Shown here piece by piece: positions 786 to 62,609 of a stretch of 64,000 bases of DNA. Positions within the stretch are counted from its first letter, which is position 1; the number at the start of each line of letters is the position of its first letter. The stretch is from Stegostoma tigrinum. Lineage: Eukaryota. The translations under genes and the position numbers were made by a program. The stretch is taken from contig NC_081370.1 in assembly GCF_030684315.1 (NCBI RefSeq), positions 28,213,078 through 28,277,077 on the forward strand, in the 5' to 3' direction. The notes beneath the pieces are model-generated. The model ran no database searches. It saw nothing but the letters and a program-made list of their open reading frames with translations, and had not been told where the DNA came from.

Positions 786-1745
786 AAACTTTGAAACAGA
801 GAATCTTCAGAGAACTGACAGAAGCTTTGTTCAGGGGATTAATTCTATGGTCATGAAACTAAAGAGGATTGTTAAATATGAGATTATTACCTAAAGGATC
901 AAGAGAAAGGTCTGCATTTTCCTTCAATGTAGAACATTGTCAGGATATGGAATACCATAGCAGCAATAGTGTTCAAACAAAGCTTCTAGCATTTTAGAAA
1001 AAGATGTGGATAAATAATTGAATCGTTTTTTTAAAATCATATGGGAATAGGGCATGGGAATATACATAGGTATATAAGGCCCAGTGACATCCTTTTAGAT
1101 ATTTGTAAATCAACCTGTTCAGAAATGTTATGACACACCTCTAGAACAGATGGGACTTGAACCCAGGACTCTGATTCAGAGGTTGGGACACTGTTCCACT
1201 GAAGTCCTTCAATCTCATCCTTTTGTGCTGTAAAACTCTACTATTCTATCAAACTGTCACTGTGATGTTTATCGTTATGAGCATACAATCTGATGTTGCA
1301 TACTCAATTGAAGAAATAATCAGTTGTTTAAAGGAAAAAACCTCAGAGTGTTATTTTTTACGCTAAGATTGCACTGGTGACCACCAAACTAATTCAAAAA
1401 ATTGAGTGCATCTAATTTGTACCTGCTGGCTGGAGCTTAACATCATAGAAAATAGGAGGAGGTTATACACCCACTCTCTGAAACCATTCATGGCACATTC
1501 TTAAGCTTAATGCTACTTTGCTGCCAACTTCTTTGATTCCCTGAGTCCAAAAATCTATTGGTCTTAGCCTTTAATGTACTCAATAACTTTGCAACCACAC
1601 CCTCTAGAGAATTAGGACAAATCTCATGCTCTGATTGTCTCTAAACAGCTGAATCCTTATCCTTAAACCATATTCCCTATTTCTGGAGTCTCCAACTAGA
1701 GGGGATAGTGTCTGAACATCTTTGTCAAGTTACCTCAGAATCTTA

Positions 1746-2168
1746 GATAATAAAATGTGAGGCTGGATGAACACAGCAGGCCAAGCAGCATCTCAGGAGC
1801 ACAAAAGCTGACGTTTCGGGCCTAGACCCTTCATCAGAGAGGGGGATGGGGGGAGGGAACTGGAATAAATAGGGAGAGATCCCACCTCCTTGACCTGTCC
1901 GTCTTCCCTGGACTGACCTATCCCCTCCCTACCTCCCCACCTACACCCTCTCCACCTATCTTCTTTACTCTCCATCTTCGGTCCGCCTCCCCCTCTCTCC
2001 CTATTTATTCCAGTTCCCTCCCCCCATCCCCCTCTCTGATGAAGGGTCTAGGCCCGAAACGTCAGCTTTTGTGCTCCTGAGATGCTGCTTGGCCTGCTGT
2101 GTTCATCCAGCCTCACATTTTATTATCTTGGAATCTCCAGCATCTGCAGTTCCCATTATCTCTGATAC
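1746..2168. mobile_element. Non-coding fold-back copy of the Penelope family
   Basis: Inverted 3' ends (1746-1879 on -, 1879-2168 on + with tail); TSD TACCTCAGAATCTTA at 1731-1745 and 2169-2183. Confidence 0.92.
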
Positions 2169-4138
2169 TACCTCAGAATCTTATTTGCTTCAATCAAAAC
2201 ATGCACCTTCTCGTTGAAGGAAAAAAAAATTCCAGATGTCACTGATAAATTTGAAGTGTTTTCCAAGTGATGCATTTGCTTTGTTAAATTCTTTTAGGAA
2301 GCTTTCTCTTGGTTGTGAAGTATGCTACAAATCCAATGCCACCATTAACATTTTTTAAAAAATCTGAAGCTACACTTAATGCAATGTCAAACCATAGGTT
2401 TGAGACAGCTCCCATAAATGACTGTTTATTTCACTGACTTTTCAGAACATAATACTGATTACATTGTCCACCAAGACTTAGAAAATAATTGAGGTGAGCT
2501 CATTATCGTTTCAAATGATAATATTTTAAAAGTATTCATTTTAAATCATCTCAACTTTATTCAGCAGTTTGTAATGTGTAAAGAGCTTTCATTAGACTGA
2601 AAGTTAAAATTCTGGTTCCATATACATTGCAGAATTACATGATCAAGAAGTCAGACTTTTAGAGAAAACAAACAAGTGGGCATCTGGAGCTGAAGAGATT
2701 TCTCAGTGCCTGGCATTATATAATCAAGATTTCTGTCCACCCACTATTTCATGATGAATTGAAACTGTGCAAATAAATTTGAATGGAAAGTAAGTTCTTT
2801 GGGAAATGTTTGAAACCTGGGTTATAAAAAAGTCTATCAAATATTTCACTGGATGTAAGAGCTTGATTAAACAGAAGCATTTGCTAGCTGCCAAAATGCA
2901 GTAAGCTGAAACCAAAATGAATTCATGCATCCTGACTCATCCTTCTCAAATCTGCTATTATGTGTCGTATGAGAATGCATCTAAAGCTGTCGTTCCTTAA
3001 CTGTGTGTTAATCAGCAACAATGAATAGGGCTACGACTTCCCCTCCTCTAATAATGTCCAAGTAACGTACGGCCTTGCCCTTGTTCTGCGTCTCTCGGTT
3101 TCTATTTCTGGGCCATGGGTTTCTACCGACTGCTGCATCAAAGACTGACCCTGACTGGGAACTTGGCAGCAACGTTCCTACTGTGTAACTGTAACCTACC
3201 TGAGGCTAACCCTGTTGCCTTGGCACTGTAGAATGGTCTGGGCTTTATTGTTAACCAGTGCAAGACCTTCAACCTTCTTTCTACTCTTTCCTCGCTAAGC
3301 ATGTAACTGATAAGGCACTGCGAAAATAAGTTTTAGTTATTTCGTGTGTGCAGCATTATATGTAGAGTACTTTGGTGCCATCTAGTGCTTTTTGTCAATT
3401 CTGCACCTTAAAGTGTTCGAGTTCAGAGATTTCTGTAGAGGCTGAGATGGCCAAATTAACTTTTTTTAAAAAATTGTTCATGGGATGTGGGCATTGCTGC
3501 CGTAGCCAGAGTTTATCACCTATTCCTAATTGCCAGGGGGGCAGTTCTGAATCAATCACGTTGCTGTGATGTAGGCAGATGAGTTAAGGATGACAGATTC
3601 TCTTCCCGAAAGGGCAGTAATGAAACAGACATGGAAAAAGAAGAGGAAAAAGATTACAACTGAGATTAACTCGTAAATCAATGATATGGACAATATTCCA
3701 TGTGTTTTTACTTTGAGTCCATAAAGTGTCCAGTGTCCAGTGAAGGTCCTTAGCTGAACTTGAAGAATTTTTTTTACTTGTGGTTGAAGTTGTAGCAACA
3801 TGAAGTTGGTTCAGTTTTCAGAAGAATACAGGCTTTCGTCTACAAGCCAACATTTTGAAGAGACTGAGACTTGAGGCAGGTTTAATTCAGGCTATAGTCT
3901 AGCTATGGAGTTAGCAAACCCTAGGTTCTTAGCAGATTGAGATTAACAGGAACCAGACCCTTACCAGATTGAGGCAGTGATGTCCAGAGATGACAGTTAA
4001 CATTTCCAAATTCTTGTTGTGGTGATGGTGTGTTGGAGTTGTTTCTGACGTGACTGTCCTTGAATGAGTCATGGTTTGACTTAATGAAGAGTTTCTACAC
4101 CTAATTGTTCATTTGTATGAAATCAAAGTTGAGCTGTT

Positions 4139-4223
4139 AGATAACAAAGTGTGGGGCTGGATGAACACGGCAGGCCAAGCAACATCTTAGGAGCACAAAA
4201 GCTGACGTTTCGGGCCTAGACCC
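4139..4223 (-). mobile_element. Solo 3'-end fragment of the Penelope family
   Basis: GATAACAAAGTGTGGGGCTGGATGAACAC..CGGGCCTAGACCC; stops inside the hammerhead motif. Confidence 0.85.
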
Positions 4224-5085
4224 TGCTTCAGGCATAATGAGTTTCAGAACTATCTGGGTGGAAGCATCTCGTCTGCTGGACGTTTGGTGTTTGTTGACTG
4301 CAAAGTGCATGCAATGCATTTTGCATAACATTTTCTGAGGCTGATGTAAACTCTATATTGCTTACTACTGATAACTTTCCAGTAGTGCAGTCCAATTTTA
4401 ACATGTGGCATGAAAATGTCATAGTTTAGACCATTAAGTTCATTTAAAAATTTAAACAGAAAGTATAACTTTTTTTTTTAAAAAGATCTCTTTTTATGTT
4501 TTGTGACCACTATATGAATCTGAAGTTTTTCTTACTGATGCAGCAGCCTGTTAGCCATCTGTCAATTGAGTGCTATGAGCTTTGGTATATTGTTAGTAAT
4601 CCTATTCTTTTAGTTTCAGCTTCTATAAGCATGTTTCTAGGTCAGACTTCTTGCCCTTGTGATCCAATGCCATATTTAGTGGCCAGTTCATGAGGAATTG
4701 TGAAATTGCTATGATATTTGAGGATGAGAAAAAGAAGACTTTGGAACAAAATGGCAGTGTTGACAATATTTTTGTTTTAACGCAAAGCTTTTAAAATGTC
4801 TCAGCAAATAATGTAAAGAAAATGCTTTCAGTCACAGCACTCCAAGCTGTTGTAGCGATGCGTTTAACAAATATATAGATAGGCCTCTGAAGTGAGCAGT
4901 GATGTCATTCTGAGCCCAGTGGTCTTGTGTTAGTGTTGTAGTTAGTAGGTGGGCCCTGTGCAGCTCCTTAGTCTTACTGTCGTGGGCACGAACCAATAAA
5001 CATAAATTAAACATTAAAGAAGTCAGGCCTGAGTTTGTATCAAGACCTGATGAATCCGTACAAAAACACAGAGTCTTTGCTTTAT

Positions 5086-6820
5086 GTGTGATAATGGGAT
5101 GCTGGAGAATCCAAGATAATAAAGTGTGAAGCTGGATGAACACAGCAGGCCAAGCAACATCTCAGGAGCACAAAAGCTGATGTTTCGGGCCTAGGCCCTT
5201 CATCAGAGAGGGGGATGGGGTGAGGGTTCTGGAATAAATAGGGAGAGAGGGGGAGGCGGACCGAAGATGGAAAGAAAAGAAGATAGGTGGAGAGGAGAGT
5301 ATAGGTGGGGAGGTAGGGAGGGGATAGGTCAGTCCAGGGAAGACAGACAGGTCAAGGAGGTGGGATGAGGTTAGTAGGTAGGAAATGTAGGTGCAGCTTG
5401 GGGTGGAAGGAAGGGATGGGTGAGAGGAAGAACAGGTTAGGGAGGCAGAGACAGGCTGGGCTGATTTTGGGATGCAGTGGGGGGAGGGGAAGAGCTGGGC
5501 TGGTTGTGTGATGCGGTGGGGGAAGGGGAGATTTTGAAGCTGGTGAAGTCCACATTGATACCATTGGGCTGCAGGGTTCCCAAGCGGAATATGAGTTGCT
5601 GTTCCTGCAACTTTCGGGTGGCATCATTGTGGCACTGCAGGAGGCCCATGATGGACATGTCATCTAAAGAATGGGAGGGGGAGTTGAAATGGTTCGCGAC
5701 TGGGAGGTGCAGTTGTTTATTGCGAACCGAGCGGAGGTGTTCTGCAAAGCGGTCCCCTAGCCTCCGCTTGGTTTCTCCAATGTAGAGGAAGCCACACTGG
5801 GTACAATGGATACAGTATACCACATTGGCAGATGTGCAGGTGAACCTCTGCTTAATATAGAAAGTCATCTTGGGGCCTGGGAGGGCAACTGCCCTCCAAC
5901 CCCACCACACAGGGCACCTTCCCCTGCAACCGCAGGAAATGCTACACTTGAGGGAGGAGGTGTGGGGGCAAGTGTAGCATTTCCTGCGGTTGCAGGGGAA
6001 GGTGGGTTGGAGGGCAGTTGCCCTCCCAGGCCCCAAGATGACTTTCCATATTAAGCAGAGGTTCACCTGCACATCTGCCAATGTGGTATACTGTATCCAT
6101 TGTAGCATTGTAACATTGGGGAAACCAAGCGGAGGCTAGGGGACCGCTTTGCAGAACACCTCCGCTCGGTTCGCAATAAACAACTGCACCTCCCAGTCGC
6201 GAACCATTTCAACTCCCCCTCCCATTCTTTAGATGACATGTCCATCATGGGCCTCCTGAAGTGCCACAATGATGCCACCCGAAGGTTGCAGGAACAGCAA
6301 CTCATATTCCGCCTGGGAACCCTGCAGCCCAATGGTATCAATGTGGACTTCACCAGCTTCAAAATCTCCCCTTCCCCCACCGCATCCCAAAACCCCAGTT
6401 CGTCCCCTACCCCCACTGAACCACACAACCAGCCCAGCTCTTCCCCTCCCCCCACTGCATCCCAAAACCAGTCCAGCCTGTCTCTGCCTGCCTAACCTGT
6501 TCTTCCTCTCACCCATCCCTTCCTCCCACACCAAGCCACACCTCCATCTCCTACCTACTAACCTCATCCCACCTCCTTGGCCTGTCCATCTTCCCTGGAC
6601 TGACCTATCCCCTCCCTACCTCCCCACCTATACTCTCCTCTCCACCTATCTTCTTTTCTCTCCATCTTCAGTCCGCCTCCCCCTCTCTCCCTATTTATTC
6701 CAGAACCCTCACCCCATCCCCCTCTCTGATGAAGGGTCAAGGCCCAAAACGTCAGCTTTTGTGCTCCTGAGGTGCTGCTTGGCCTGCTGTGTTCATTCAG
6801 CTTCACACTCTATTATCTTG
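5086..6820. mobile_element. 1.7-kb fold-back Penelope copy with GIY-YIG sequence in both arms
   Basis: Inverted arms of about 0.8 kb, rearranged centre 5880-6026; TSD GAGTCTTTGCTTTAT at 5071-5085 and 6821-6835. Confidence 0.93.
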
Positions 6821-7239
6821 GAGTCTTTGCTTTATACCCCGATTACTGTACCTCTAGGGCAAAGATACTGAATGTACCATATCTCAAATAAAGGTAGCAG
6901 TTGTGAATCCTAGGTCAGAACTTGGAATTTAGTTACGACTGAAGATAACAAGGGATAGAAAGAACTCGCCAATTAGTACTCCATATAAATGCAGCTATGA
7001 CTAATTCTGCACAAACGACACAGAGGTGTGTGCATGTCAGTATGTAAAAAGACATTTGAGAATCCCCTCGGGCAGTCCAACTGGATGAAGATGAATTGTT
7101 TCCACGCCAATTTCATAGTAAGTCCGACGGTAAACACTACATCCTATTTTCTTACTGTTAGTAATTGGGATTTATTGGTGGAAGGCATGGTTTACACAGT
7201 GGTTTGCGGTGCTGAGCAGCAAGTTCTGGAAGCACTAAT

Positions 7240-8062: not shown

Positions 8063-11000
8063 GTATAATCTGCTTGTACAGTTAAGAACAATACTTGACT
8101 TTAAATTATATTTTGTATTTCGTGTGGTAAGAAAGGGAAAACATAAGTTTCATTTGGGAGATTAAGGGTTGCCTGGAAGCAGCATAGAATGACACAGAGA
8201 AAGGTGGTACAATCTAGAAAGTCAGTGAGTCCATGTTTGATAACCCAGAGAGTGAGTGAAGTACTACAGGACACTGAATTTTGGGAACTCGTAGTTACTC
8301 TGACTTTTATGTAAAATGAATTTAGTTTGCAGTTGCTCTAAGTGTCTCAGGCAGATACAAAGGGGAAAGAAACATCAACTGCACAGAAATTTGCTCAAGT
8401 ACTGCAACTGTACTAGCCTGAATCTCAGCACAGAGCTTCAATGTGGAGATAGTAGGAACTATTCACTGAGGTTTGGGTGACTAAAGATATTGGATGGATA
8501 AAATGGGTAGTGTGAGTTTGAGTCCTTTTCTGAAGTGGATAATTTTTTTTTCGAACCTAATGTTTGTCTTGAGTAAAATAGTTCATCATTTACTTGATTA
8601 ATAGACAATTTATCATTTGTATTGAAAGGACACAAACAGCCACTTATAAATATGTTCCAATACTGACCTCCACAGGTAAAAAAAAATATAGATGTGCATT
8701 ATCAGGTTTCTCCCTAAGGTCTGACTTGCCTAGAATTAACATCAGCTGGAAATAGAGCAGTACTAAGAGGTATAGAGCTATACTTTGTTGATGTCAGCAA
8801 AAAGAAACCTTATAAGTTAATAAATATAATTTAGTTATGTAATTGCCACTGGGTGGAACATTAAAGAAGAAATTATTGGAGCCTATAACAAAGACAATGA
8901 AATTATTATGGGAGACTTTAGTCTTCATCAAGACTGAGGCAATCTTATTGGTGAGGATGATCTAGAAGTTAATGTTATATAATGTTTTCATATTATGTCC
9001 CTTTGTGATACTTTGTGCAAATGACTAGGCACAGAAGTTTCTTAGTTTAGCATTGTGTAATGAGGCAGGATTATTTGGGAACGCCATAATCCATTACAAA
9101 ATGGTGGTTATAAAACCATTGAATTTCATATTAAGATGTTAAATATATACTCCAATCGGAAACAAAATCTTAAAAAATGGTGCAGGCTTAAGAGGAGAAC
9201 AGGCTAAGGCTGATTGAATAAGTATACTAAAAGTTATGCAGTAAAATAAACACTGACAAACATTTAAAGAAACACTTTAAAATATTCAACCATAATACAT
9301 CCAAAACAGAAAGACTCATCCATGGCTCAGGAAGTTATGATTAATATTAAAATTTTAAAAATGCTTACATTGCAAAGAAAAACAGTAGTGATACAGAGAA
9401 TTGTATATATTTTAGTAATCAGAAAATGACCACCAAAGTAGATTTTTAAAAATCAAAAAAGAAGAAATATGCACACACGTAGTCAGAAATTTTAAAATTA
9501 GCTTTAAGAGCTTCTTTAAGTATATAAAAAGGAAGAATCTGGATAAAATAAACAAGGGGAGAACACAGTGAGTCTTCAGAAAGGAATTGACAGTTTAAAT
9601 GAATGGGTAACAGGATGGCATAAGTTATTTATTTTGTTTGCAAGAATAGAGAAACAGATTTCTAAAAAGAGGTGTTAAAATTGTAAATTCCTAGGTTCAG
9701 AGTGACATGGATGTAAGGAAAATATAAGATTAGCAAGTAGGAAGGCATGTTGTACATTTGCCCTTATTATAAGCTGACTGGAGTACCAGAATAAAAATAA
9801 CTTTGCTACAGTATGTAAGGTTTTGGTATGACCTCATCTGGAATTTTTTGTGCTGTTTTTGATCTTTATCTTTAAAGAAGGATATGCTCACATTGGGGGT
9901 GGTACAGTGAATATTCATTAAATAGGTTCCTGAGATGAAAGAGTTGTCCTATGATGACACATTACATAATTAGAACTTTTTCTGTGGAGTTTAGAAGAAT
10001 GATTAGGAATCTGACTGAGTTGTACAAGATCCTGAAGAGGCTTGACAGAGTAAGTGTCATGATATTGTTTTGGTTTGTCAGTGAATATAAAATGTAGCAG
10101 CAGAGTCTCAGAATAAGGTGACAATCATTTAAGATTGAAATGAGGAGAAATTACTTCACTCAAAGTGTCATGAATCTTTGGAATTCTGCACCTTAGAGGA
10201 TTGTTCATGTTGCATTTTTGAATGCAGTAAAGACTTGTAAAGACAGATTTTTGTTCTGTTAGTGAAGCACAAGGAATGGGGTGGAGGTGGGAAAGTGGAG
10301 CAAAAGCCTGAGATCAATTGCAATTGCATTGAATGGCAGGCGTCTGGTCTGCTCCTGTTTCTACTTTGTGTTTTAGTACAGTGTAGCCTTACTTAAATCT
10401 GTTGTTAATACAGCCATATTATGAACAATTGTTACAGCAGTGTAATTACTATGTATGGTGTAAATGACCCCACCCGAAAAATTGACTACACATTATTTTT
10501 GGTAAATTAGCATAATTATAGCAGTTTGAATAAAATATCAATCAGTCATTTTCTAATTGTTGTTTTGAAATATATTGTCACTGTTAAACATCTCCTGTTT
10601 TTACACAGGTTACCAAATGGTGTGACCGCCTAGTAGCATGCTCTTCTCAGACAATCTACAATGCAATACAATGGGTTCAATCCCTCTACTGCACACAGGG
10701 AAGGAATCTCCTTGGCGCATTGACTGCTGCATTTCATGATCCAACATGTGAGGCCATTTACCTGGTGACAAATGGCTTACCTGACAATCCATTAAAGGAT
10801 GTTTTTCATGTGGTACCTTATATTTCACATGGTCGTCCAGTGCACATTTTCTATTTATCAGATAAATGGGTAGACAGTGAATGCCAAGACTTTCTGCAGA
10901 GAATTGGTGGACTTACCCAAGGCAGTGCTCACCTCATTAGACTCAACACCTCTGGAGATATCAAACAGGTAACTTATGGAGATCAAATATGCAACACTCT

Positions 11001-14000
11001 TACAGAAAATGATGTAAGAACACTGTAAATCATTTGTCTTCAGAAAGGCAAAAAACTTATCACAGAGGCATCATGATGCAATAGTTAATCTATTCTTTCT
11101 TGTAGAAGTCTGTAATGAAAAGTAGATATTAGAAACATAGTTTGTCTATATTAAAATGCCTACCAAAAATTACCCACAGTGGAATGGCTTGAAACAGCCA
11201 AAAACCAGGTACGGCTGTAGAAACTCAGTAGGTCTGGCAGCATCTGTGCTCAGAAAATAGAGTTAATGTGTCAAGACCAGTGACCCTTTATGGAAGGGTA
11301 CTAAACAGTATTCAATTTTGGTGCTTTAAGTAATGATTTTTCTTCTTTCACCTGGAGCGTATGTGTGCCTGTATGAGGAAAAGCAAAGAAGCCACTTTAT
11401 TCAACCACAAACCAAACAAGTTGCTTTGACTTTGTTCACTTTCTGGGAAAGTGTGTTAAATTTCAACATTAAAATGCCTTGTATTTTTGAATAATCTAAA
11501 CATTTGTTTACTGTTACCTAGGTGATTTGTATTTATGCAACAGGCCTCACAACCTCTGGGCCCTTGTATCCTGATCTAAAGTACTGCACTGTAAAAAGAA
11601 TGCCGGATAACAACGCGTACACTGGCTCATGGGTAACAGGTTGTGACCTAAAAGCCTTTGAAACTCATCCAGTCTGTGTTTGCGACCCTCAGGTGACTAC
11701 TTGGTTAGTCTTGCTTCTTCTCCAGTTATTTTCTTGAAGAAATAGTGTTGCCTCCAGTTTTCTTTAGACCTGACTAGAATATTAATTTCCTTCATTCAGC
11801 TTTGTACATATATTGTAATGCTGCAGATCAAATTCAATACACAAACTACTTAACTATTTGTGGCTCAAAAATTCTAAAATATACCCCAAACTGAATAAGT
11901 GATATAATCAAATAATTGGCTAGTTTCTAAAATGATAATGTGATTTTGTGTCTATATTCTGTTATGTTTATCTACATCTATTATAATCTATTATAGATAT
12001 CTACGTATAATCTATTTTGTGAACTGTCTTGCAGGTAATGCAATTAGTTAGAGAGTTCAGTCCAATATCAATATTGAAACAGTTCATTTACAAGGCAGCA
12101 AAGCCTCAAGAGAAAAGATTTTGAGCTAAAATGTAACTTTCAAGTGTGAGTTTTAATCTTAAGACTCAGCTGTTAAATCATGCTTTGTTAGCTTGAGAGA
12201 TTACTTGGGGGAATTGTTTGCAGGTTGAACAGACTTAACCAAATAACCAAAGTACTGTGGATGCTGGAGATCTGAAGCAACAACAGCAAGTGCTGGAGAA
12301 GTTTATCAGTCCTGGCAGCATCTATGGGAAGAGAAATATTTTGAGTCTCATATAACATCTCCTGAATTCAGACTTGCATAGTTCATACTTTTATTCATCA
12401 TAGACTACTAAGACTTATTTAATCTTTAGAAGCACATTGTTTTCTATTTCACTGAAATTTTAAATAAGCCTGCAATTACATTGCTTTGGATGATGTCACA
12501 TGATCCCGTGATAAATCCTTTTATTAAATAATTAGGTTTATTGGAGAGTTGCCCCATTGTGTCCAGGGTTGTGCAGGCTAGGTGGGTTAACTATGGTAAA
12601 TATGGGGTTATGGGGATAGGATGCGCTTCAGAAAGGTTGTGCAGACTCGATGGGCAGAAAGGCCTCTATCTACACGGTGGAGATTCTATGCATTCTATGA
12701 TTCTATGTATTATTATCTTGAAAAAAGCTGTTTACATAACTCAATTAATTATTCTGTTTCCAGCTTTCCTCGAAACAAAATTTAAACACTGTTTGCGTTT
12801 CTCAAAATTAATTTAGGGTAGTGCACTAACAATTTTCTCAATAGTATCTGCAAATGTATTGATCCATGGGCCAGACCTCTTGCATCAAGTCAATTAATTC
12901 TTGGAGCCTCTGTCCTAGCAAGGCGAGAGTCTGATGGATTCTATTACCGCGGCACAATCAAGCAAGAAGCAGAGGTAAATTGTATTGTTTATTGAAATAG
13001 GAGTAAGGTTTATTTCAATCTGTCACATTCCTTGCAAAGTTATTTGTTCAATCACATATTTTAAATGATACCAACTTAGTCATCACCATCCCAATTTCAT
13101 TGGTATCAACATTTACTCACTCAGGGGATGACGGCATTGCTGACTAGGCCAGCATTTATTACCCATCCCTATTTGCCCAGAGAGCAGTTCAGAGTCAGCC
13201 ACATTATTGTGGGTTTGGAGTCACATGTAGGCCAGACCAGGTAAGGACAGCAGATTTCCCGCTCTAACGGGCATTAGTGTACCAAATGGATTTTTCTTTT
13301 CATGACAATCTATCTGGTTGTCATTAGATCAGGTCTTTATTCCAGATTTCATTGAATTTAAATCTCATCATCTGAATGGTGGGATTCATGGGATTGTTAG
13401 TCCTATGACATTGCCACTAATACACCACCTCCAAACTGATATTGATTTCAACATTTGTGTGTGATTGCTGGAAAATCTGGCACTGTGTTTTTGGTGAAGC
13501 ACATGGCAGTAATCAGTTGTGGTTTTTGGTGAAAATGATTGAGCTGTAGAATGCTGTGTGCACTTGTAGGAAAGATGGTTGTTCTGTGGAGGAGAGTGAA
13601 AAGGGTATCATTGGCTCTCATTTTCACTTTCATGTGCTATTCTGACTCAAGCGGGGCAGTATTAAACACTACATCACTACTTGTATACTATAGTTAGGCA
13701 AGACAGATTTTGTAAATGAATACTTTTCAATAAAGTGGAATAATAAAAGTGAAAAGTGTTACACCAACATTGATGTAAGTACAATAAATGAAACTTCTCT
13801 CATGGGAAATGTATACAATATGTGCAGCTTAAAGTGTTGTTTATTTGTTGGTTGTACATTTCATCATTCAAATAAATTGTTGAGTTGGCTTTTCTTAGCC
13901 ATTGAATTCTGTACAATGAGGCCATGAGACATTGATCTATACTGTTATTAACTCTAGGAGCCCTGATCAAAGAGAATCAGAAAGCAAATGCTCCTCATTG

Positions 14001-47938: not shown

Positions 47939-47954
47939 TTCATAACAATATCAG

Positions 47955-49458: not shown

Positions 49459-49815
49459 AGTAATTTAGCCCAAGCATCTTTAGTTGTTTTATCAGTAACC
49501 TTTCTGCTGTAATTAGGTCAAGAATATGGCTGTTCACTGATGATGTCAGGTTAACTACATTCACAAATGCACTAATACTAGAGCAGCCTTTGTCAGCCCA
49601 CAGAAGAACTTTGATATTATTCATCCTTGGGCTGGTAGATGCCAGGTAATACATCTGGTAAGTGTTAGGTAATGATGATCCCCAACAAACAAATAGGCCG
49701 CAAGAAAATACGCCAAGCACACCCTTTTACTCTTAAGTCATAGTCCAACATCCACAATCACTCCATTCTGAGGATTGCATTAACCAGAACTTTAATAGGA
49801 TCAGCTCTATCAATA

Positions 49816-49939
49816 AAACAAAGAACTGTGGATGGTGGAAGTCTGAAGAAAGCTCACTGAATCTGAAATGTTAGCTCTACTTTCGGCCCACAGATGCTGC
49901 CAGACCTGCTGAATTTCTCCAGCAACATCTGTTTTGGTT
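49816..49939. mobile_element. Family-2 Penelope-like mini element (inverted tail + 3' arm)
   Basis: CTGAAGA..GAAATGTT core at 49843-49872; imperfect 15-bp TSD TCAGCTCTATCAATA / TCAGCCATATCAATA. Confidence 0.65.
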
Positions 49940-50405
49940 TCAGCCATATCAATACTGTGACTACAACACCAGGACAGATTACTAGCTGCTCTGTCTACCA
50001 TCCACAAGGTTTGGGTCAGGAATAAAGTGGAATATTCAGTACTTACCTGGATTTGGCATTGCAGCACTCAAGAAGCTGGGCACTATTCATGGCAGATCAT
50101 GTTTCTTTATATGATCTTCTGTCACTACACCCATTATGCACCTCATCCATCACCAGTTCTTTGTTTACTTTAAAAACTCAACAATATTATGTGAAGTAAC
50201 CTTCCCCTTGTGCAACCAAAACTATTAAGAGATGTGTGACCAATAATACAATTTTTATGTTCCCCTCCCAAATGCATGCAGGATGCTGATCCATCATTGT
50301 CTCTGGGAGAATAGCCTAGAATTCCCTACCTCACACTATCCCCCTATACTGTGAATCCAATTACAGAATGTGGCTCCTATAACACATTATTATATGAAAT
50401 ACACA

Positions 50406-50729: not shown

Positions 50730-51630
50730 TCTATTATACCCATTGAAGGAGATAGCTGAAGAGATAGTGGAAGCGTTAGTGGTAACATTTCAAGAATCAC
50801 TGGAGTCAGGGAGCATCACAGAGGACTTGAAAATTGCTAATGTAATCCCTACTGTTTAAGAAGGGAGTAAGGTGGGAAATTCCAGGTTGATTAGCCTGCC
50901 CTTACTTGTGGTAAGACTTTGGAGTCTATTGTGAAGGATAAAATTTCTGAACATGTGGAAGTGCATGGTAAAACTCAGCAAAGTCAGCATTGTTTCATCA
51001 AGGGGAGATCATGCCTGACCAATCCATTAGAATTCTTTAAGGAGGTAACAAGCAGGTTAGACCAAAGAGAGCCAATGGCTGTTATCTATCTGGACTTCCA
51101 GAAGGCCTTTGACAAAGTGCCTCAAAGGAAGCTGCTGAGTAAGACAAGGGCCCATGGTGTCAGAGACAAGGTACTAGCATGGATCCAAGATTGGCTGTCT
51201 GGCAGAAAGCAGAGAGTGGGGATAAAATGGTCATTCTCAGGATGGAAGCCAGTGACTAGTGATGTTCCACAAGGGTCAGTGTTGGGACCACAACTTTTCA
51301 CTTCATGCAATAATGATCTAGACAAAGGAACTGAGGGACTTCTGGCTAAATTTGCAGATGATATGAAGATAGGTGGAGGGACAGGTAGTGTTGATGAGGT
51401 GGGAGGCTGCAGAAAGGTTTAGACAGTTGAGGAGAGTGGGCAAAGAAGTGGCAGATGGAATACAATGTGGGCAAGTGTGAGGTTATGCACTTTGGTGGGA
51501 AGAATAGAGGCATAGACTATTTTCTAAATAGGGAGAAAATTCAGAAATCTGAAGTACAAAGGAACTTGGGAGTCCTAGTCCAGGTTTCATTTAAGGTAAA
51601 CTTGCAGGTTGAGTCGTAGCTAGGAAGGCT
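50730..51630 (+). mobile_element. CR1/HER1-type LINE fragment (RT domain)
   Basis: YLDFQKAFDKVP, VPQGSVLGPQLF, KFADD; frameshifted flanks. Confidence 0.9.
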
Positions 51631-53500: not shown

Positions 53501-54846
53501 ATGGAGCATAGTTGATGAAATTCTTGAGATTTTAGAGGGGAAAAATCAATTCACATTGTACTTTCATTGTTTCAAGCTATTCTAAAGTGCTTTACAACGC
53601 TGTCATCGGTCCTTCTGATCTTGTGATATCAAGATACGGATTAGAAAAATATTCCATAAAAGTTAGTTAGCAGTGCTAATTCAGCATTAATTATATTATA
53701 TTTTCGATGTAAACAAAACCCCAATCATGGTGCTGGGCTTCACAAAATGTAACCCAATATATTGCTAACTGCACTTCATGGCGATTAGATGTAGGTTAGA
53801 ACTCATTGAACTAAATTTATTATAAATGGCTGGACATCCAAATTTGGCTTCAATATCCAACAGCCATTACCCTGAAAAATAAAGTGCAACTAGAAAACTT
53901 GCAAACATTTTGTGGTACCTAGAATTTAAAATGGGATGAATTTGTGGGAAAGAATACCACATTTACTGGAGGGAAGGTGTTCTGATGGGAGTTAGTTATC
54001 AGTGCTAATTGAGCAGTGATTATCTTATATACTTTGGATACAAACAAAACTGCATTCTTTAGGTGAACAGTGGGATGAAATTACTCTGAGTAGAGAGTGA
54101 GGGTGTTTTTAGAATCACTTGCAGTTTAGAAGCAGGCCATCGCATAATAGTTACTCTTGGAATCACTAGACAGTAATTATTGATGTGTTGTTGCAAATGT
54201 TGCTGTGTTTATTTCCTCTTGCTAAAATTTGAATGTAACTTTATGTTCACATCAATTATGTTGTCAATGTCCACACCAAAAATCAGCTGGCATTTGAAAA
54301 AAAAACCAAGAACAAAATTTTCCATCCTGCTTATGGGGTATGACATAAAGATTAACATTTTGCATTTATCTGAATTAAATGCCATCTGCCATTGCTTGGC
54401 CTACTGGCCCAGTTGATTAACATCCCAATAAGCTAGATAACCTTCTTCACTGTCCATGAAACCACCAATTTTGGTGTCATCTGTAAACTTACTAACCATG
54501 TCTCTTATATTCGACCTATTCCTTTATATGAATGACAAGTATATAAATTAAACTGAAATTGTTTCAAGACAACGATTTATCTTAGATTTGAACCAAAGAT
54601 GAAAAATGATCTTACATAAGTAATCATGTGATCTTAATCACTCAACTAGTTTACAACTTTATAATTGCTCAGTTTTCTCTTATTTTTGATAAAAGCCATG
54701 TCAACTCTTGGATTATATTTTCCACTGTGTCAAACATCCAAATCCTTTACTCTCAATACAAACATCTGAACTCATCAATTAGATGACCACCTCTATAAGT
54801 AGAGTTCATGCTTGCAATACAAACCAACCAAACTCCTGAATTAGAC

Positions 54847-54975
54847 CCTTTCTGATGAAAGGTCTAGGCCCGAAACGTCAGCTTTCTTGCTCCTAAGATG
54901 CTGTTTGGCCTGCTGTGTTCATCCAGCTCTGCGTTTTGTTATCTCGGATTCTCCAGCATCTGCAATTCCTATTAT
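54847..54975 (+). mobile_element. Solo tailed 3' end of the Penelope family
   Basis: Starts 5 nt before CTGATGA; TSD CTCCTGAATTAGAC at 54833-54846 and 54976-54989. Confidence 0.9.
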
Positions 54976-55879
54976 CTCCTGAATTAGACTATTGTCTTAA
55001 TACTCTTTAAGGTCCCTTATTCTCCATTTAAACCTCTGAGCTATTCAGTTAAATTACTGCCTTACAAATGTTCTCACATCTTCCTTGTTCACAGAATAGA
55101 CATTGTAAATTTGTGGTTTAATTGAAGAAGTTAAGTCATTCTCTAAGATCCTTTTCTTCAGGGAATAACTGTTGAAATCAATCCGAATAAGACCTTGTAG
55201 ATATTCTCAGAAGATTCTTATTTCATTTATAAATATTCTAAACTCTTTAAATTCTAGATACAGACTAGAAGACCAGGGGTGAAGTTCGGATTTGGATGCA
55301 AAATTACTTTGCCCCAGAATAGAAAGTTGCAGGAAGGCATAAGACATGAACTAATTGCAAGAGATTATATCCTCCATGTTCTTGTGGCAATGGAAGACAA
55401 ATAGAGCTTTGAATTTCCCATCTGCCATCCATTTCCTTGTGAATGCTTGACTGTATCAAAGATAAAATATCCCCTACCTTGTCCCACCTTCATACTCGGG
55501 TGTAAATCCTTATCTGTAAATATTTATATTGCATGCCTAGTATATCGTTTGCAATAAATTTTAAGTGTTTTGTGACATCATGTGTGGAGGTGTAAGCACA
55601 TAGCTGGGATGAACCTGTGATATGAAAATGATCTTCACATAGTTAGGTTGACTGAATAAAACACAAAGTAAGACATTTATTGTTATAGCATGGCTGAATG
55701 TGGTAAATGGAGACATTTGTCCAAGAATGAATGATTGTGACACATTCCATCCATAACTTGAATTAGAAAATGGTTTAGTTCTATTGAATATTTCTGTAGT
55801 TTTCAAACTTAACGAATCACTTGTAGTTTGTAATTTAGTCACCATGTCAGCATAAGCTATGTAAATGATTTTTCAGCAA

Positions 55880-56270: not shown

Positions 56271-57219
56271 TAATTGAGATGAATCTGCATGAACACTAAG
56301 AATGTTGTGCTATCATCACTGGGAAATAGCATGGTAACCCAGTATGCAGGAATGTATTATATAGAAGAAAATACAGACCCTGGAATCTGTTATGTTTAAT
56401 ATTATCAATATTAGTTTATTGGAACATGAAGAACACATAGATTAATATGGTCAGAATATGGTGCACAAGCTGAAGCCTTCAGAAAAATAGGATAACAGGA
56501 GGCTAGAGTAGGTTGCAGAGACATGATTAAAAAAAACAGCCAAACATACAACAGAAAGACAATAAGGCATAGGTTGTAGTGAGTGACTGAGGGGCTGTAA
56601 TGTATTATAGACAGCCTAACATACAATGAAGTGTGTCACAAAAACAGCATAACAGACTGGGTGCATTATACCTTTGTGACAATGAAGGTTTCTAACATAT
56701 TTTAATAACTTGGAAATTTGCATTCTGAAGGACAGGTAAATTGGTTTTAGGTCTTCATTCTGTGAAGGGATCAGAAAATTGTTTGGATCAGTGAACTAAA
56801 GCCAACTTTTTGAAGAAATCACGTGAGTTAATGATGGTTGAGTCAAACTACATGTTGAGATAATTTCAGAGATAATGGGAACTGCAGATGCTGGAGATTC
56901 CAAGATAATAAAATGTGAGGCTGGATGAACACAGCAGGCCAAGCAGCATCTCAGGAGCACAAAAGCTGACGTTTCGGGCCTAGACCCTTCATCAGAGAGG
57001 GGGATGGGGGGAGGGAACTGGAATAAATAGGGAGAGAGGGGGAGGCGGACCGAAGATGGAGAGTAAAGAAGATAGGTGGAGAAGGTGTGGGTGGGGAGGT
57101 AGGGAGGGGATAGGTCAGTCCAGGGAAGACGGACAGGTCAAGGAGGTGGGATGAGGTTAGTAGGTAGCTGGGGGTGCGGCTTGGGGTGGGAGGAAGGGAT
57201 GGGTGAGAGGAAGAACCGG

Positions 57220-59424
57220 TTAGGGAGGCAGAGACAGGTTGGACTGGTTTTGGGATGCAGTGGGTGGGGGGGAAGAGCTGGGCTGGTTGTGTGGTGCAGT
57301 GGGGGGAGGGGATGAACTGGGCTGGTTTAGGGATGCAGTGGGGGAAGGGGAGATTTTGAAACTGGTGAAGTCCACATTGATACCATATGGCTGCAGGGTT
57401 CCCAGGCGGAATATGAGTTGCTGTTCCTGCAACCTTCGGGTGGCATCATTGTGGCAGTGCAGGAGGCCCATGATGGACATGTCATCAAGAGAATGGGAGG
57501 GGGAGTGGAAATGGTTTGCGACTGGGAGGTGCAGTTGTTTGTTGCGAACTGAGCGGAGGTGTTCTGCAAAGCGGTCCCCAAGCCTCCGCTTGGTTTCCCC
57601 AATGTAGAGAAAGCCGCACCGGGTACAGTGGATGCAGTATACCACATTGGCAGATGTGCAGGTGAACCTCTGCTTAATGTGGAATGTCATCTTGGGGCCT
57701 GGGATGGGGGTGAGGGAGGAGGTGTGGGGACAAGTGTAGCATTTCCTGCGGTTGCAGGGGAAGGTGCCGGGTGTGGTGGGGTTGGAGGGCAGTGTGGAGC
57801 GAACAAGGGAGTCACGGAGAGAGTGGTCTCTCCGGAAAGCAGACAGGGGTGGGGATGGAAAAATGTCTTGGGTGGTGGGGTCGGATTGTAAATGGCGGAA
57901 GTGTCGGAGGATAATGCGTTGTATCCGGAGGTTGGTAGGGTGGTGTGTGAGAACGAGGGGGATCCTCTTGGGGCGGTTGTGGCGGGGGCGGGGTGTGAGG
58001 GATGTGTCGCGGGAAATGCGGGAGACGCGGTCAAGGGCGTTCTCAATCACCGTGGGGGGGAAGTTGCGGTCCTTAAAGAACTTGGACATCTGGGATGTGC
58101 GGGAGTGGAATGTCTTATTGTGGGAGCAGATGCGGCGGAGGCGGAGGAATTGGGAATAGGGGATGGAATTTTTGCAGGAGGGTGGGTGGGAGGAGGTGTA
58201 TTCTAGGTAGCTGTGGGAGTCGGTGGGCTTGAAATGGACATCAGTTACAAGCTGGTTGCCTGAGATGGAGACTGAGAGGTCCAGGAAGGTGAGGGATGTG
58301 CTGGAGATGGCCCAGGTGAACTGAAGGTTGGGGTGGAAGGTGTTGGTGAAGTGGATGAACTGTTCGAGCTCCTCTGGGGAGCAAGAGGCGGCGCCGATAC
58401 AGTCATCAATGTACCGGAGGAAGAGGTGGGGTTTGGGGCCTGTGTAGGTGCGGAAGATGGACTGTTCCACGTAACCTACAAAGAGGCAGGCATAGCTGGG
58501 GCCCATGCGGGTGCCCATGGCCACCCCCTTAGTCTGTAGGAAGTGGGAGGAGTCAAAAGAGAAGTTGTTGAGTGTGAGGACGAGTTCCGCTAGGCGGATG
58601 AGAGTGTCGGTGGAGGGGGCCTGGTCGGGCCTGCGGGACAGGAAGAAGCGGAGGGCCTTGAGGCCATCTCCATGCGGAATGCAGGTGTACAGGGACTGGA
58701 CGTCCATGGTGAATATGAGGTGTTGGGGGCCAGGGAATTGGAAGTCCTGGAGGAGGTGGAGGGCGTGGGTGGTGTCACGGACATAGGTGGGGAGTTCCTG
58801 GACCAAAGGGGAGAAAATGGAGTCCAGATAGGTGGAGATGAGTTCGGTGGGGCAGGAGCAGGCTGAGACGATGGGTCGACCAGGGCAGGCAGGTTTGTGG
58901 ATTTTGGGAAGGAGATAGAAACGGGCCGTGCGGGGTTGGGGAACAATGAGGTTGGAGGCTGTGGGTGGGAGGTCCCCTGAGGTGATGAGGTCGTGAATGG
59001 TGTTGGAGATGATGGTTTGGTGCTCGGGTGTGGGGTCATGATCGAGGAGGCGGTAGGAGGTGGTGTCGGAGAGTTGGCGTCTGGCCTCGGCGATGTAGAG
59101 GTCAGTACGCCATACTACCACTGCGCCACCCTTGTCTGCGGGTTTGATGGTGAGGTTGGGGTTGGAGCGGAGGGAGCGGAGGGCTGCCCGTTCTGCGGGG
59201 GAGAGGTTGGAGTGGGTGAGAGGGGTGGAGAGGTTGAGGCGGTTAATGTCTCGACGGCAGTTGGAGATGAAGAGGTCGAGGGAGGGTAGGAGGCCTGGGG
59301 GTGGTGTCCAGGAGGAGGACTTGTGTTGGAAGCGGGTGAAGGGGTCAGTGGAAGGAGGGTTGGGTTCCCGGTTGAAGAAGTAGGCATGCAGGCGAAGACG
59401 GCGAAAAAACTGCTCTGTGTCCGA
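57220..59424 (-). CDS. Penelope-like reverse transcriptase / GIY-YIG endonuclease (N-terminally truncated, no internal stops)
   Basis: Motifs IKPADKGGAVVV, FYLLPKIHK, GRPIVS, MDVQSLYT, QTKGVAMGT, RYIDD, FLD. The linker CNRRKCYTC is a Neptune-type Cys cluster; VVYCIHCTRCGFLYIGETKRRLGDRFAEH..PYGIN is the GIY-YIG domain. The first 20 or so residues of the tracked 754-aa ORF come from the inverted arm. Confidence 0.93.
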   Translation of the reverse strand, partial: SDTEQFFRRLRLHAYFFNREPNPPSTDPFTRFQHKSSSWTPPPGLLPSLDLFISNCRRDINRLNLSTPLTHSNLSPAERAALRSLRSNPNLTIKPADKGGAVVVWRTDLYIAEARRQLSDTTSYRLLDHDPTPEHQTIISNTIHDLITSGDLPPTASNLIVPQPRTARFYLLPKIHKPACPGRPIVSACSCPTELISTYLDSIFSPLVQELPTYVRDTTHALHLLQDFQFPGPQHLIFTMDVQSLYTCIPHGDGLKALRFFLSRRPDQAPSTDTLIRLAELVLTLNNFSFDSSHFLQTKGVAMGTRMGPSYACLFVGYVEQSIFRTYTGPKPHLFLRYIDDCIGAASCSPEELEQFIHFTNTFHPNLQFTWAISSTSLTFLDLSVSISGNQLVTDVHFKPTDSHSYLEYTSSHPPSCKNSIPYSQFLRLRRICSHNKTFHSRTSQMSKFFKDRNFPPTVIENALDRVSRISRDTSLTPRPRHNRPKRIPLVLTHHPTNLRIQRIILRHFRHLQSDPTTQDIFPSPPLSAFRRDHSLRDSLVRSTLPSNPTTPGTFPCNRRKCYTCPHTSSLTPIPGPKMTFHIKQRFTCTSANVVYCIHCTRCGFLYIGETKRRLGDRFAEHLRSVRNKQLHLPVANHFHSPSHSLDDMSIMGLLHCHNDATRRLQEQQLIFRLGTLQPYGINVDFTSFKISPSPTASLNQPSSSPPPTAPHNQPSSSPPPTASQNQSNLSLPP

Positions 59425-59900
59425 CCCATCATGGGCCTCCTGCACTGCCACAATGATGCCACCCGAAGGTTGCAGGAACAGCAACTCATATTCCGCCTGG
59501 GAACCCTGCAGCCATATGGTATCAATGTGGACTTCACCAGTTTCAAAATCTCCCCTTCCCCCACTGCATCCCTAAACCAGCCCAGTTCATCCCCTCCCCC
59601 CACTGCACCACACAACCAGCCCAGCTCTTCCCCCCCACCCACTGCATCCCAGTCCAACCTGTCTCTGCCTCCCTAACCGGTTCTTCCTCTCACCCATCCC
59701 TTCCTCCCACCCCAAGCCGCACCCCCAGCTACCTACTAACCTCATCCCACCTCCTTGACCTGTCCGTCTTCCCTGGACTGACCTATCCCCTCCCTACCTC
59801 CCCACCCACACCTTCTCCACCTATCTTCTTTACTCTCCATCTTCGGTCCGCCTCCCCCTCTCTCCCTATTTATTCCAGTTCCCTCCCCCCATCCCCCTCT

Positions 59901-59928
59901 CTGATGAAGGGTCTAGGCCCGAAACGTC
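59901..59928 (+). ncRNA. Minimal hammerhead-ribozyme-like motif in the Penelope 3' region (representative copy)
   Basis: CTGATGA-A-GGGT(CTAG)GCCC-GAAA-CG-TC: both catalytic-core boxes, 4-bp helix II, palindromic rudimentary helix III, GUC triplet. Helix I is weak. The motif recurs, sometimes mutated, near 2036, 6726, 27917, 34786 and 54852 on + and in the - arms. Confidence 0.7.
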
Positions 59929-62609
59929 AGCTTTTGTGCTCCTGAGATGCTGCTTGGCCTGCTGTGTTCATCCAGCCTCACATTTTATTATGTTGAGATA
60001 ATTGATACTTTTTGTTGACCAAGCTTTCATGGTCTATAGAAGAGGCTAGGTACCAGATAGAGGTTGTGATTCAGAAGAACAGTTCCATACCAACAGTTGT
60101 GATGTTAAGCCAAATAAAGCAAGTCAACGTCTTGTATTTTTTCTTGGGGTTCTGTGAGAAAAATCAGTGTACTAGTCTGTGCAGTTGTCTCTCCTGGGGA
60201 TTCAGTAATGGAGAGAATCATGTAAAATTGCAATACTTGTGACCTTCTTAGTTCAGAAAGAAATTGTAAGATGAAAGTAGGAGTGATACCTCACCAAGAT
60301 TGAGTATCTGTAAAGAATATTGCTAAGAAATGGAGTTGGATCTTTTTGCTGCTTATGATAAGGTTTTTCCAAATCTTTTTTATAAATATAACTTTGCTAT
60401 TATTCTTTTTTCTTTTTGTTGTAAACTTGTGTTCTTTTGTTAGAAGCACATTGGCAGCCTCATTTAGACATTTTAAGTAATTGACTACCACTGTAATCAA
60501 ATTGCAACAATAAAATCTGTTTTATCAAGCTGGGTTTCGCTTTGGACTCTGACTTTTCTAATACTACCCTCAGGTGGGATCAGAGGTTAACACCCAGTTT
60601 GCATTATGTTGCAGACACAGAATAAGAGATTGGTTAAATTAACGTTTAGAATAGAAAAATGCAGATGAGTTGTGTTACAGAGACAGGATAAAACATGGAT
60701 TAGTATGTTATAGACAACAGTCTTGAAATGCAATACATTGAAGAATAACACATTGTAGCAAAGTGTTACAAGATGTCCTGAACCATGAGGTTGCCTTCAT
60801 AATATTTTTGACAGACATATTTAACATCAAATATTTTTTATTTCTGATTAAAAATCCTTTTAGAAATCAGTCCCTATGTTCACATTTAGAATGGAAACAA
60901 CCTTTATAACTGTATGTCATAATTACATCTGCATGCCAAAGGGATGTAATGTATTGCCATATATTTTTGATAGTTCCCTTAATATTTACTAGTGCACATT
61001 ATACATCAAACTATCCAAAAACTTGTGCTTTTGTTGTTGGGAGTTAATCAGTAAGACAAAGCTGTCAAGCTGAAAAGACTTTTTCTCTAATTATGTACTT
61101 GTCTCTGAGTACGCTAGTCGAAGATGAGGAGCTTTGAATGGTTTAATTGTTAAATTGCACGTGCTGAATCACAGAGCTGATTCTTACATTCTTTTGGCTC
61201 AATGAATTGCATTGGGTTTTTGGAGGAATTATCACTGATGCCTAGCAAGATTCCTCAGTGTATCTTACCAAATGCATCTCATTTATTATGTACCCTGCCT
61301 GTATGGTGCTCCTCTGTTCCGATTTTATCCCCATCTTACTACATGCAATTCCCAAAAAACGTTGGCTTCTTGCTGGATGTCTGCCAAACATTGGCACCCT
61401 TGATCCTATGCCATTGTTATAAAAGTCCATTGTGCACCCAGGTGAGCACTCAGTCCAGAGCTGCCCAGCACGATTGCTGACATTTGCCCTGGACATGGCA
61501 GACGAGGGGAAATTGACACCCTGCTCTGTGGGCAGGATCCTGTAGGCCTTGCACATACTTGACATCCTTCTGTCCCAAGAACCAACAGAGGAGACCATGA
61601 CACCAGACCATGCTAGTTTTGTCTGAAGTTGCTACCTAGCGCAGTGTAGTCTCAGTTGTCTGTCAGCAATGTTAAAGTCAGTGTCCTTCTCTCTTATGCC
61701 AACATAGGCCACCACCTTCTCTCCAATACCTTGCGCCCACTCTATCTCTGGTACTGTTACCCACATTACAGAAGCTTAAGCTCTACCTCGCTCTCTGTTG
61801 CCTTCAACTCCTTCTCTCACATGCTCTTATCCTTCTCCAAACCTTGACACTGCTAACCCTATGTGCCCCCAGCACTGCCTACTCCCTTACTCAGGAATCC
61901 TCCCCATCTGACCCAAGACTAACAGGTGGGCCACTCTTTCATCTCCGTTAAAACATACCCTGTCTTCTCCAGAAGGAGAGCAGACCTCAACAGGGCAGAA
62001 AGGGTCAAGACAGTTGGTGAGCGTCCTGTCTGTTGGCTGCTTATCCCTTATGCAGACAACATCTTGACCCAACCACCCTAAGTAGCTGACTGGTCGTGCC
62101 CAAGCCACTGACTAATGTTGGAGGCTGCCCTTGATATACTGTGTCTGGCCCCCATCTGAAGTTTATTTCTCTTGACATGACTGAGGACTGCTGACAACCA
62201 TGACACATGCCTGGCTTTATATCCATGTGAAACAGGAAGGCAATATAGAGATAAGATGAGCCTAATGACTCTGGAGGCAAAGTGCATTGCTTTGCCTTGA
62301 CTTTTTACAATAATGAGTTGCTATGCAAAGCCAGGCAGGATCAGGGAGAGTGATTGCTAACATAGCAAGGGAACAGCCCAGAGATACAGCCTGGTCTAGT
62401 CTATAAGTTGGGTGTGTGTCCCTGAACACAAGAGATCTTGCAGCAGCATTACAATGAGCATTACCAGTGTAGCCCAAGGTGCAGCATGGAGGTACAGAAG
62501 CATCCTATTAGTGGATTAGATTATCATGAGGATTCCTGGAGGCTGACATATGTTCATTGACATTGGCATCCAACATGGATGTGAGTGGACATGTGGCCAG
62601 TGAGCTGAA

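Follow-up and report, generated by a model that had tools for sequence, protein, structure and literature searches.

Introduction

Penelope-like elements (PLEs) of the Neptune type are described as carrying one open reading frame (ORF) that encodes a reverse transcriptase (RT) plus a C-terminal endonuclease (EN) of the GIY-YIG type, with a CX2-5CXXC motif and CCHH residues. They show 5' truncation, an inverted truncated copy, a one-sided tail and a minimal hammerhead near the end, and they tend to insert into microsatellites (PMC8557442, PMC3846280). Head-to-head repeats are reported to be the most frequent PLE arrangement and have been explained by self-priming on an antisense template (PMC3846280); the tail (30–40 nt) is often found at one end only (PMC8557442), and the origin of the tandem and inverted structures has been named an open problem (PMC8557442; preprint 10.1101/2021.04.23.441226). 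In the present study we analysed a family of such elements in a 64,000-nt stretch of the Stegostoma tigrinum genome (NC_081370.1, positions 28,213,078 to 28,277,077; hereafter the window), in which most copies are fold-backs, i.e. two inverted arms joined head to head. Their sequences suggest that these copies probably arose by nicking of both target strands, priming on both overhangs and joining of the two resulting cDNAs. The shark family shares the above features of Neptune elements, but its targets are not microsatellites (0/8 reconstructed empty sites, judged by eye). Moreover, its target-site duplications (TSDs) fall within a narrow range of 12–15 bp, whereas those of PLEs are described as variable (PMC8557442), with examples of 8, 9 and 10 bp in A. 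vaga (PMC3846280).

Poseidon_Ac (PAc) from Anolis, a PLE of another clade, has been studied in vitro (PMC11167929). Both strands are nicked and extended, and there are two RT start sites, the tail being the stretch between them. These properties are consistent with the structure of the shark copies, as are the ATG within the hammerhead core and the use of uncleaved RNA as template (the shark arms never start at the cleavage site). Unlike the shark family, PAc prefers ATT at the cut (3/16 shark nicks vs 15% background, i.e. no enrichment), and the strict pairing of a tailed with an untailed end observed in the shark fold-backs was not seen in vitro. A dimer is predicted for the PAc protein; the accessible text of that paper gives neither the nick-to-nick distance nor a TSD length with which the shark stagger could be compared.

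In L1 twin priming, two 3' overhangs of approximately 15 nt prime reverse transcription, the cDNAs are end-joined, and TSDs of 12–18 bp are formed (PMC2912911, PMC4245944, PMC11702581). However, in L1 an upstream segment is inverted and the 3' end is not duplicated; the endonuclease is of the APE type, the tail is poly(A), and a minority of insertions is affected, whereas 7 of the 11 shark copies are double-ended, with both arms starting at the element end. L1-type twin priming was rejected for this family, as the arms overlap in template in all seven fold-backs and poly(A) is absent. In Schistosoma, minimal hammerheads occur as opposite-strand pairs, 100–700 bp apart, which have been ascribed to truncated PLEs (PMC4209133); by analogy, they probably represent the same kind of short fold-back, the junctions and TSDs not being described in the part of that paper available to us.

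Copies of the element in the window

Self-BLAST combined with a profile search assigned 11 loci, designated below by their start positions, to one repeat family occupying 6,895 bp (10.8%) of the window (Table 1). A profile of the family ends recovered the same 18 arms, plus weaker matches to a second family. The numbers given in the initial annotation, i.e. 11 copies including seven fold-backs of 175 bp to 3.1 kb and eight TSDs, were borne out: the fold-backs measured 174–3,124 bp, and the remaining loci are single-arm copies. Neither a full-length copy nor a direct or partial tandem, as known in other PLEs, was present among the 11 loci. All paired arms are inverted, and no head-to-tail tandems of hammerhead units were seen, as a non-LTR (long terminal repeat) retrozyme would require.

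At least three allele classes could be distinguished: (i) 1746, 23885 and 56866, (ii) 5086 and 34247, and (iii) 4139, 15434, 44754 and 54847. Members of the first are nearly identical between loci, which suggests recent activity.

Table 1. Copies and sequence features of the PLE family, and a fold-back of the second family, in the window (positions in nt; "." denotes no single strand).
Feature	Position	Strand	Characteristics	TSD
Fold-back	1746-2168	+	antisense untailed arm (1746-1879) and sense tailed arm (1879-2168); arm mismatches 0/134	1731-1745 / 2169-2183, 15 bp
Single untailed arm	4139-4231	-	begins at hammerhead core	not found
Fold-back	5086-6820	.	extends into GIY-YIG coding region; arm mismatches 30/758; nested inverted duplication 5888-6018 at centre	5071-5085 / 6821-6835, 15 bp
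Single untailed arm	15434-15528	-		not found
Fold-back (220 bp)	23885-24104	+	both arms stop at hammerhead 5' edge	23873-23884 / 24105-24116, 12 bp
Fold-back (174 bp)	27794-27967	-	untailed arm stops early at its 3' end (+50) and extends 11 nt beyond the tailed arm on the 5' side	27779 / 27968, ~15 bp, 2 mismatches (by eye)
Fold-back	34247-34872	-	92-nt tailed and 537-nt untailed arm, the latter deeper by 521 nt	34233-34246 / 34873-34886, 14 bp
Single tailed arm (80 nt)	44754-44833	+		nearby 9-bp repeat, 1 mismatch, not significant
Fold-back	49263-49458	-	filler AAAATTTT at centre; arms differ at 3/8 subfamily-polymorphic columns	49249-49262 / 49459-49472, 14 bp
Single tailed arm	54847-54975	+	starts at hammerhead 5' edge	54833-54846 / 54976-54989, 14 bp
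Fold-back (longest)	56866-59989	-	arms 56866-59425 (tailed) and 59426-59989 (untailed); arm mismatches 0/564 plus one short gap	56852-56865 / 59990-60003, 14 bp
Two ATTATCT motifs	56870-56909	-	33 nt apart (+86, +119); untailed and tailed ends cluster there	
Minimal type I hammerhead	56968-56995	-	CTGATGA, bulged A, 4-bp stem II, GAAAC, GTC; helix I 2 bp	
TATTTAT	57023-57029	-	34 nt upstream of hammerhead core; candidate TATA-like box	
ORF, 734 aa	57220-59424	-	uninterrupted; RT (YIDD), CX4CXXC linker, GIY-YIG EN with CCHH residues	
Second-family fold-back 49816-49939	49801-49954	.	short antisense tail arm, sense arm from hammerhead core; arms scarcely overlap in template	15-bp flanking repeat, 2 mismatches

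Tailed and untailed 3' ends

The hammerhead core, with its first C as the origin, served as the reference for arm positions. Untailed arms end at +86 to +95 and tailed arms at +123 to +132, with the sole exception of the untailed arm of 27794-27967, and the tail sits between and just past the two ATTATCT motifs. Both termini of the fold-backs are therefore 3' ends, as had been proposed, but two different ones, approximately 36–38 nt apart. A tailed end was combined with an untailed end in all seven fold-backs (an independent choice of ends would produce this result with a probability of 0.5^7 = 0.008), and the same pairing was found in both fold-backs (2/2) of the second family.

Proposed mechanism of insertion

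The best explanation of these structures, which we consider probable, is that an endonuclease-bearing Neptune-type PLE makes a double nick, that both overhangs are primed and that the cDNAs are joined. The RT/GIY-YIG protein would nick the target strands approximately 14 nt apart, leaving two 3' overhangs; a flank preference shared by both nicks is visible as a sequence bias (a T-run 6–10 nt 3' of each nick). Close to its end, the element would have two fixed start sites for reverse transcription, each primed by one of the overhangs: judging from the observed end positions, the first coincides with the tailed site, and the second lies approximately 36 nt upstream. The two cDNAs would stop independently, often by run-off at the RNA 5' end, at the hammerhead edge. 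Their free ends would be united by end-joining, with 0–8 nt of filler, and fill-in would result in a head-to-head insertion bordered by a 12–15 bp TSD. The size series of the copies would thus reflect the spread of two independent cDNA lengths, with no separate family of miniature inverted-repeat transposable elements (MITEs).

Target-site duplications and cut geometry

Direct repeats flank 8 of the 11 copies, i.e. all seven fold-backs and one of the four single-arm copies (54847). Their lengths are listed in Table 1; in controls, 110 mismatched flank pairs reached at most 8 bp and only 3 of 3,000 random pairs reached 11 bp or more. For the copy 27794-27967, the best TSD selected by the script was 14 bp long with one mismatch (27778/27967). 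A search of the flanks of 4139, 15434 and 44754 out to 400 bp revealed nothing beyond chance. The contrast between fold-backs and single arms parallels that reported for L1, in which twin-primed insertions keep TSDs of 12–18 bp and those of truncated copies scatter (PMC11702581).

The apparent TSD length had a mean of 14.1 bp and a standard deviation (SD) of 0.99 (95% confidence interval 0.66–2.0; n=8, with the 27794 copy entered as 15 bp). A 14-nt stagger with chance extension at both ends fits 7 of the 8 TSDs (log-likelihood −6.3, vs −11.4 for 13 nt), but not the 12-bp one. With such an interval, this exception and three copies without a TSD, the fixed cut of about 14 nt postulated in the initial annotation was not established; the observed lengths overlap with the peaked TSD distributions known for L1 (PMC4245944, PMC2912911). 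The supposed AT-richness of the TSDs was rejected, since their GC content (35%, 40/113) equals the background (38%; p=0.56). Microhomology between primer and template at the TSD ends was 0–3 nt, as judged by eye, and chance extension of the TSD looks the same.

In the rebuilt empty sites, an A-run is located 6–10 bp to the left and a T-run 6–10 bp to the right of the TSD, a feature absent from the initial annotation. Read outwards, T occupies 45 of the 80 positions at this distance, with an even contribution of the tailed (22/40) and untailed (23/40) sides. This bias was reached in none of 5,000 permutations (maximum over positions and bases) and held when any one site was dropped (≤5/2,000); it also held at other window widths, being weakest at width 1 (30/2,000), and in a local-shift control (maximum 38, 720 shifts). 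That the two sides agree in both the bias and its distance suggests that one enzyme makes both nicks.

More tentatively, it may be proposed that a symmetric PLE dimer reads a pseudo-palindrome of approximately 34 bp (A-run, 5–6 bp, 14 bp, 5–6 bp, T-run), makes a concerted break with 14-nt 3' overhangs, and by default primes both of them, using one tailed and one untailed start. The dimer is inferred from the symmetric flank bias together with the PAc model. If this were true, double-ended target-primed reverse transcription would be the normal route of PLE insertion, and priming in the 5' leader with run-off at the transcript start would explain the inverted pseudo-LTRs, the solo termini and the abundance of 170–220 bp hairpins.

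The most serious alternative retains priming at both ends, but has the second nick follow with a delay and with less precision, as in L1, so that TSD lengths are peaked rather than governed by a rule; the narrow range would then reflect a small sample and the counting of clear TSDs only. The statistics leave some room for such a process, since the confidence interval of the SD reaches 2.0 and a normal model with an SD of 2 is only about 2.5 log units below that with an SD of 1. The variability ascribed to PLE TSDs and the three copies without a TSD also speak in its favour, as do the L1 data: TSDs of this element peak at 13–15 bp across hosts while spanning 10–20 bp (PMC4245944), and twin-primed copies keep them discrete (PMC11702581). 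Each LINE clade has a TSD peak of its own (PMC4245944, PMC2912911). However, models with an SD of 3–4 are 5–7 log units worse, the matching bias and distance on both sides point to one enzyme, and the older second family also has a 15-bp repeat, although weakly (its score was matched by 56 of 4,000 random pairs). We therefore regard a loose second nick as unlikely.

Origin of the two arms

If a fold-back resulted from a single cDNA folding back, its tailed arm would have to hold all of the other arm. The tailed arm does contain the sequence of the untailed one in 1746, 56866 and 5086. In three other fold-backs it is the untailed arm that is deeper, by 521 nt (34247), 19 nt (49263) and 11 nt (27794), and in 23885 the arms are even within 3 nt. 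Since the deeper arm in 34247, 49263 and 27794 is the untailed one, and the tail is present only on the other, neither arm was copied from its partner in these three copies. In 49263, the arms differ at three of eight polymorphic columns, with each allele present in at least two other loci (p approximately 0.001, uncorrected for seven tests), and the centre AAAATTTT (AAAA/TTTT) reads as four A residues on each cDNA end. The arms of the second-family copy 49816 derive from almost non-overlapping template. The centre junctions differ among all seven fold-backs; in most first-family copies, homology at the centre is 0–3 nt, with fillers.

These data bear on the published hypothesis (PMC3846280), according to which a single cDNA, primed at one nick, folds back or self-primes and serves as template for the second arm; the asymmetry of the arms would then be due to deletions that occurred later at the centre. 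Arm mismatches range from 0 to 9% over the fold-backs, and in the youngest copies the arms are identical or almost so (0/134, 0/564, 1/85), as expected if one had been copied from the other.

Several observations, concerning both the arms and the targets, weigh against priming from two nicks. (i) The arms agree at 39/39 polymorphic columns in six of the seven fold-backs, as they would equally if one arm had served as template for its partner. (ii) The tailed arm is the deeper one in 1746, 56866 and 5086, which include both zero-mismatch copies, and in older copies an apparent asymmetry of the arms could stem from deletions that affected palindrome centres at a later time. (iii) One chimeric junction occurs in both arms at the centre of 5086, and the most likely reading is that DNA-templated switching took place there; the nested duplication in this copy reflects either such a switch within the palindrome or the remobilisation of a fold-back copy formed earlier. 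(iv) Two of the three differences between the 49263 arms are adjacent and may represent one event. (v) No difference in start site between the strands was seen for PAc in vitro (PMC11167929), so that strict pairing of tailed and untailed ends is not predicted from that system. (vi) Only eight TSDs are available, one of them of 12 bp, and 3 of the 11 copies have none. (vii) The flank bias was found post hoc in eight sites and is one-sided at 1746 and 49263, and the three TSD-less copies show no T-run at the positions expected from a 14-nt stagger.

On balance, the sequences favour two cDNAs, usually made from the same or an identical RNA, over self-priming. The deeper untailed arms, the allele mosaic of 49263 and the tailed/untailed pairing support the proposal of the initial annotation that cDNA is written from both nicks. 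Self-priming, by comparison, is at odds with the AAAA/TTTT filler, the non-overlapping arms of 49816 and the scant centre homology, and leaves unexplained why the untailed end lies at one site (+86 to +94) in six of the seven fold-backs, and also terminates the single arms 4139 and 15434. It thus appears to us quite improbable.

The short copies could also be taken for a MITE family spread by a DNA transposase: they are short, non-coding, hairpin-like and numerous, and three hairpins of 174–220 bp have similar centres near the hammerhead edge. However, their termini are unequal, with the tail on one side, so that the outermost sequences do not form terminal inverted repeats; the size series is continuous into the RT ORF, the arms of longer copies running into the RT/EN coding sequence, and short and long copies have common subfamily alleles and TSD size. 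Shared internal junctions had been named as the mark of MITE-like amplification, and as all seven centres differ, the hairpins do not form a MITE family, which we consider extremely improbable; their de novo formation by retrotransposition is supported. The junction test needs care, because run-off of short arms at one RNA 5' end would also make de novo hairpins nearly identical in junction. Sequencing or assembly chimeras can practically be dismissed: the inverted structures of PLEs pose problems for assembly (PMC8557442) and two copies have identical arms, but TSDs flank each palindrome and unique sequence resumes beyond them, arm divergence (0–9%) is age-graded, and the ends are non-random.

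Coding capacity and identity of the element

The ORF of 734 codons, whose 5' end is truncated by the fold-back junction of 56866-59989, supports the RT/GIY-YIG system postulated in the initial annotation. Its RT domain matches Pfam RVT_1 with an E-value of 3.3e-5, below the curated cut-off, and the GIY-YIG region gave a weak match to TIGR01453 (residues 595–632, E=0.072); many homologs bear PF01541. The CCHH feature, defined in PMC8557442 with the cysteines located between GIY and YIG, is represented by VYCIHCTRCGFLYIGET and conserved histidines downstream. Between RT and EN, the connecting linker reads CNRRKCYTC, and a CX2-5CXXC linker is present in 83 of the 106 YIG-bearing homologs among the 120 matches listed (the best 120 of 1,919). 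Among the named homologs of the same set, predicted proteins of carpet sharks rank highest, namely those of Stegostoma (94% identity, with 57% of the query covered), Rhincodon (88%) and Chiloscyllium (78%). A sequence search of PDB with the element protein yielded no matches. Judging from its domains, the element is an endonuclease-bearing Penelope-like retrotransposon with an RT followed by a GIY-YIG domain at the C terminus. Since its CX4CXXC linker fits the criterion of PMC8557442, we assign it to the Neptune type, a placement made by linker motif; Nematis also has the CX2-5CXXC motif (PMC8557442).

Hammerhead motif and 5' ends of the arms

The hammerhead motif (Table 1) has the bulged base, the G-C closing pair and the palindromic 15.2-16.2 listed for minimal hammerheads in PMC4209133, and its 2-bp helix I has a counterpart in D. 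virilis (PMC4209133). Exact matches to the motif were found six times in 4 of the 11 loci, and once in the second family (0.28 expected). No hammerhead was detected in an Rfam search at E≤1, and an Rfam match to MIR1858, far under the gathering score, was rejected as caused by the palindrome. The description of the family as hammerhead-bearing is to be read as referring to this minimal motif. We regard the motif as a candidate ribozyme fitting the minimal hammerhead description. When bacterial and archaeal genomes were scanned, the motif was met at one locus, in a Treponema metagenome-assembled genome (L001, 2143-2170), which showed no further similarity and was deemed a chance match.

Several short arms start within the hammerhead core, and the 5' ends of 8 of the 18 arms fall between −3 and +8 of it (p≤0.00055 under three null length models of our own choice). 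None of the 18 arms begins at the cleavage site, and hammerhead cleavage was therefore rejected as the cause of 5' truncation. The simplest reading of the clustering would be run-off at the RNA 5' end, with priming 90–130 nt downstream; alternatively, the RT may be halted by the hammerhead structure. A TATA box is typically located about 30 nt from the start, and the TATTTAT sequence upstream of the core is a candidate. The D. virilis Penelope has an internal, TATA-less promoter (PMC2377424).

In copy 54847, a 9-nt stretch made up of the end of the left TSD and 4 further nt is identical to the antisense of stem II, which possibly reflects an abortive second priming. The starts of the untailed arms 34336 and 59426 are no more than 5 nt apart (−486 and −481) and lie near a small inverted repeat; this may be a second truncation hot spot or a pseudo-LTR boundary.

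Significance of the shark copies

Inverted 5'-truncated copies, the one-sided tail, head-to-head predominance, opposite-strand hammerheads, and nicking and extension of both strands are already known. The fold-back architecture and the extension of both strands had thus been reported for PLEs, whereas the junction and target signatures add information on mechanism. The shark copies are well-preserved insertions, some of them very young, of a known retrotransposon group, with the architecture expected of it. A full-text literature search revealed no TSD length distribution for a Neptune family, no symmetric flank preference, no test of self-priming by arm depth and no description of the shark family, part of which may be covered by older PLE reviews or by Repbase or Dfam entries.

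With 11 copies in 64 kb, including very young ones, four signatures can be counted on existing shark assemblies, i.e. TSD spread, tailed/untailed pairing, arm-depth symmetry and the flank logo, and compared with a PAc-type in vitro assay. If the proposed mechanism is true, they would disclose the cut geometry of a telomerase-related retroelement, as well as a retrotransposon route to MITE-like hairpins, which annotation pipelines could misfile. Arm-to-arm divergence would be usable as an insertion clock.

Second family and neighbouring sequences

A second, older PLE-like family is represented at 11175-11294(−), 12254-12347(−), 23637-23766(−), 28387-28475(−), 39046-39263 and 49816-49939. In the terminal region it shares approximately 66% identity with the first family, and its hammerhead is decayed; two loci are tailed/untailed fold-backs, and its copies also tend to start at the hammerhead core. 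Copy 49816 does resemble twin priming from one RNA. A TSD search at five of these loci was positive at one, and 39046-39263 has none at its true ends, as judged by eye.

Long open frames resembling host exons are located at 10588-11028(+), 18829-19548(+) and 41894-42706(−), and the insertions from position 15434 onward may lie in introns. A protein atlas search with one host exon gave no usable match; the frame 10588-11028(+) has a weak von Willebrand factor A match (Pfam VWA_3, E=0.00047). The window also contains (i) LINE-like RT-bearing fragments at 50895-51629 and 62670-63110 (RVT_1, E=1.7e-18), 76% identical to each other, (ii) a direct repeat of 193 bp (30327-30519 and 31896-32085; 97% identity, 1.57 kb apart), and (iii) dispersed repeats of 72–85% identity (13146-13259, 35997-36044 and 36738-36807; 15863-16186 and 47584-47932).

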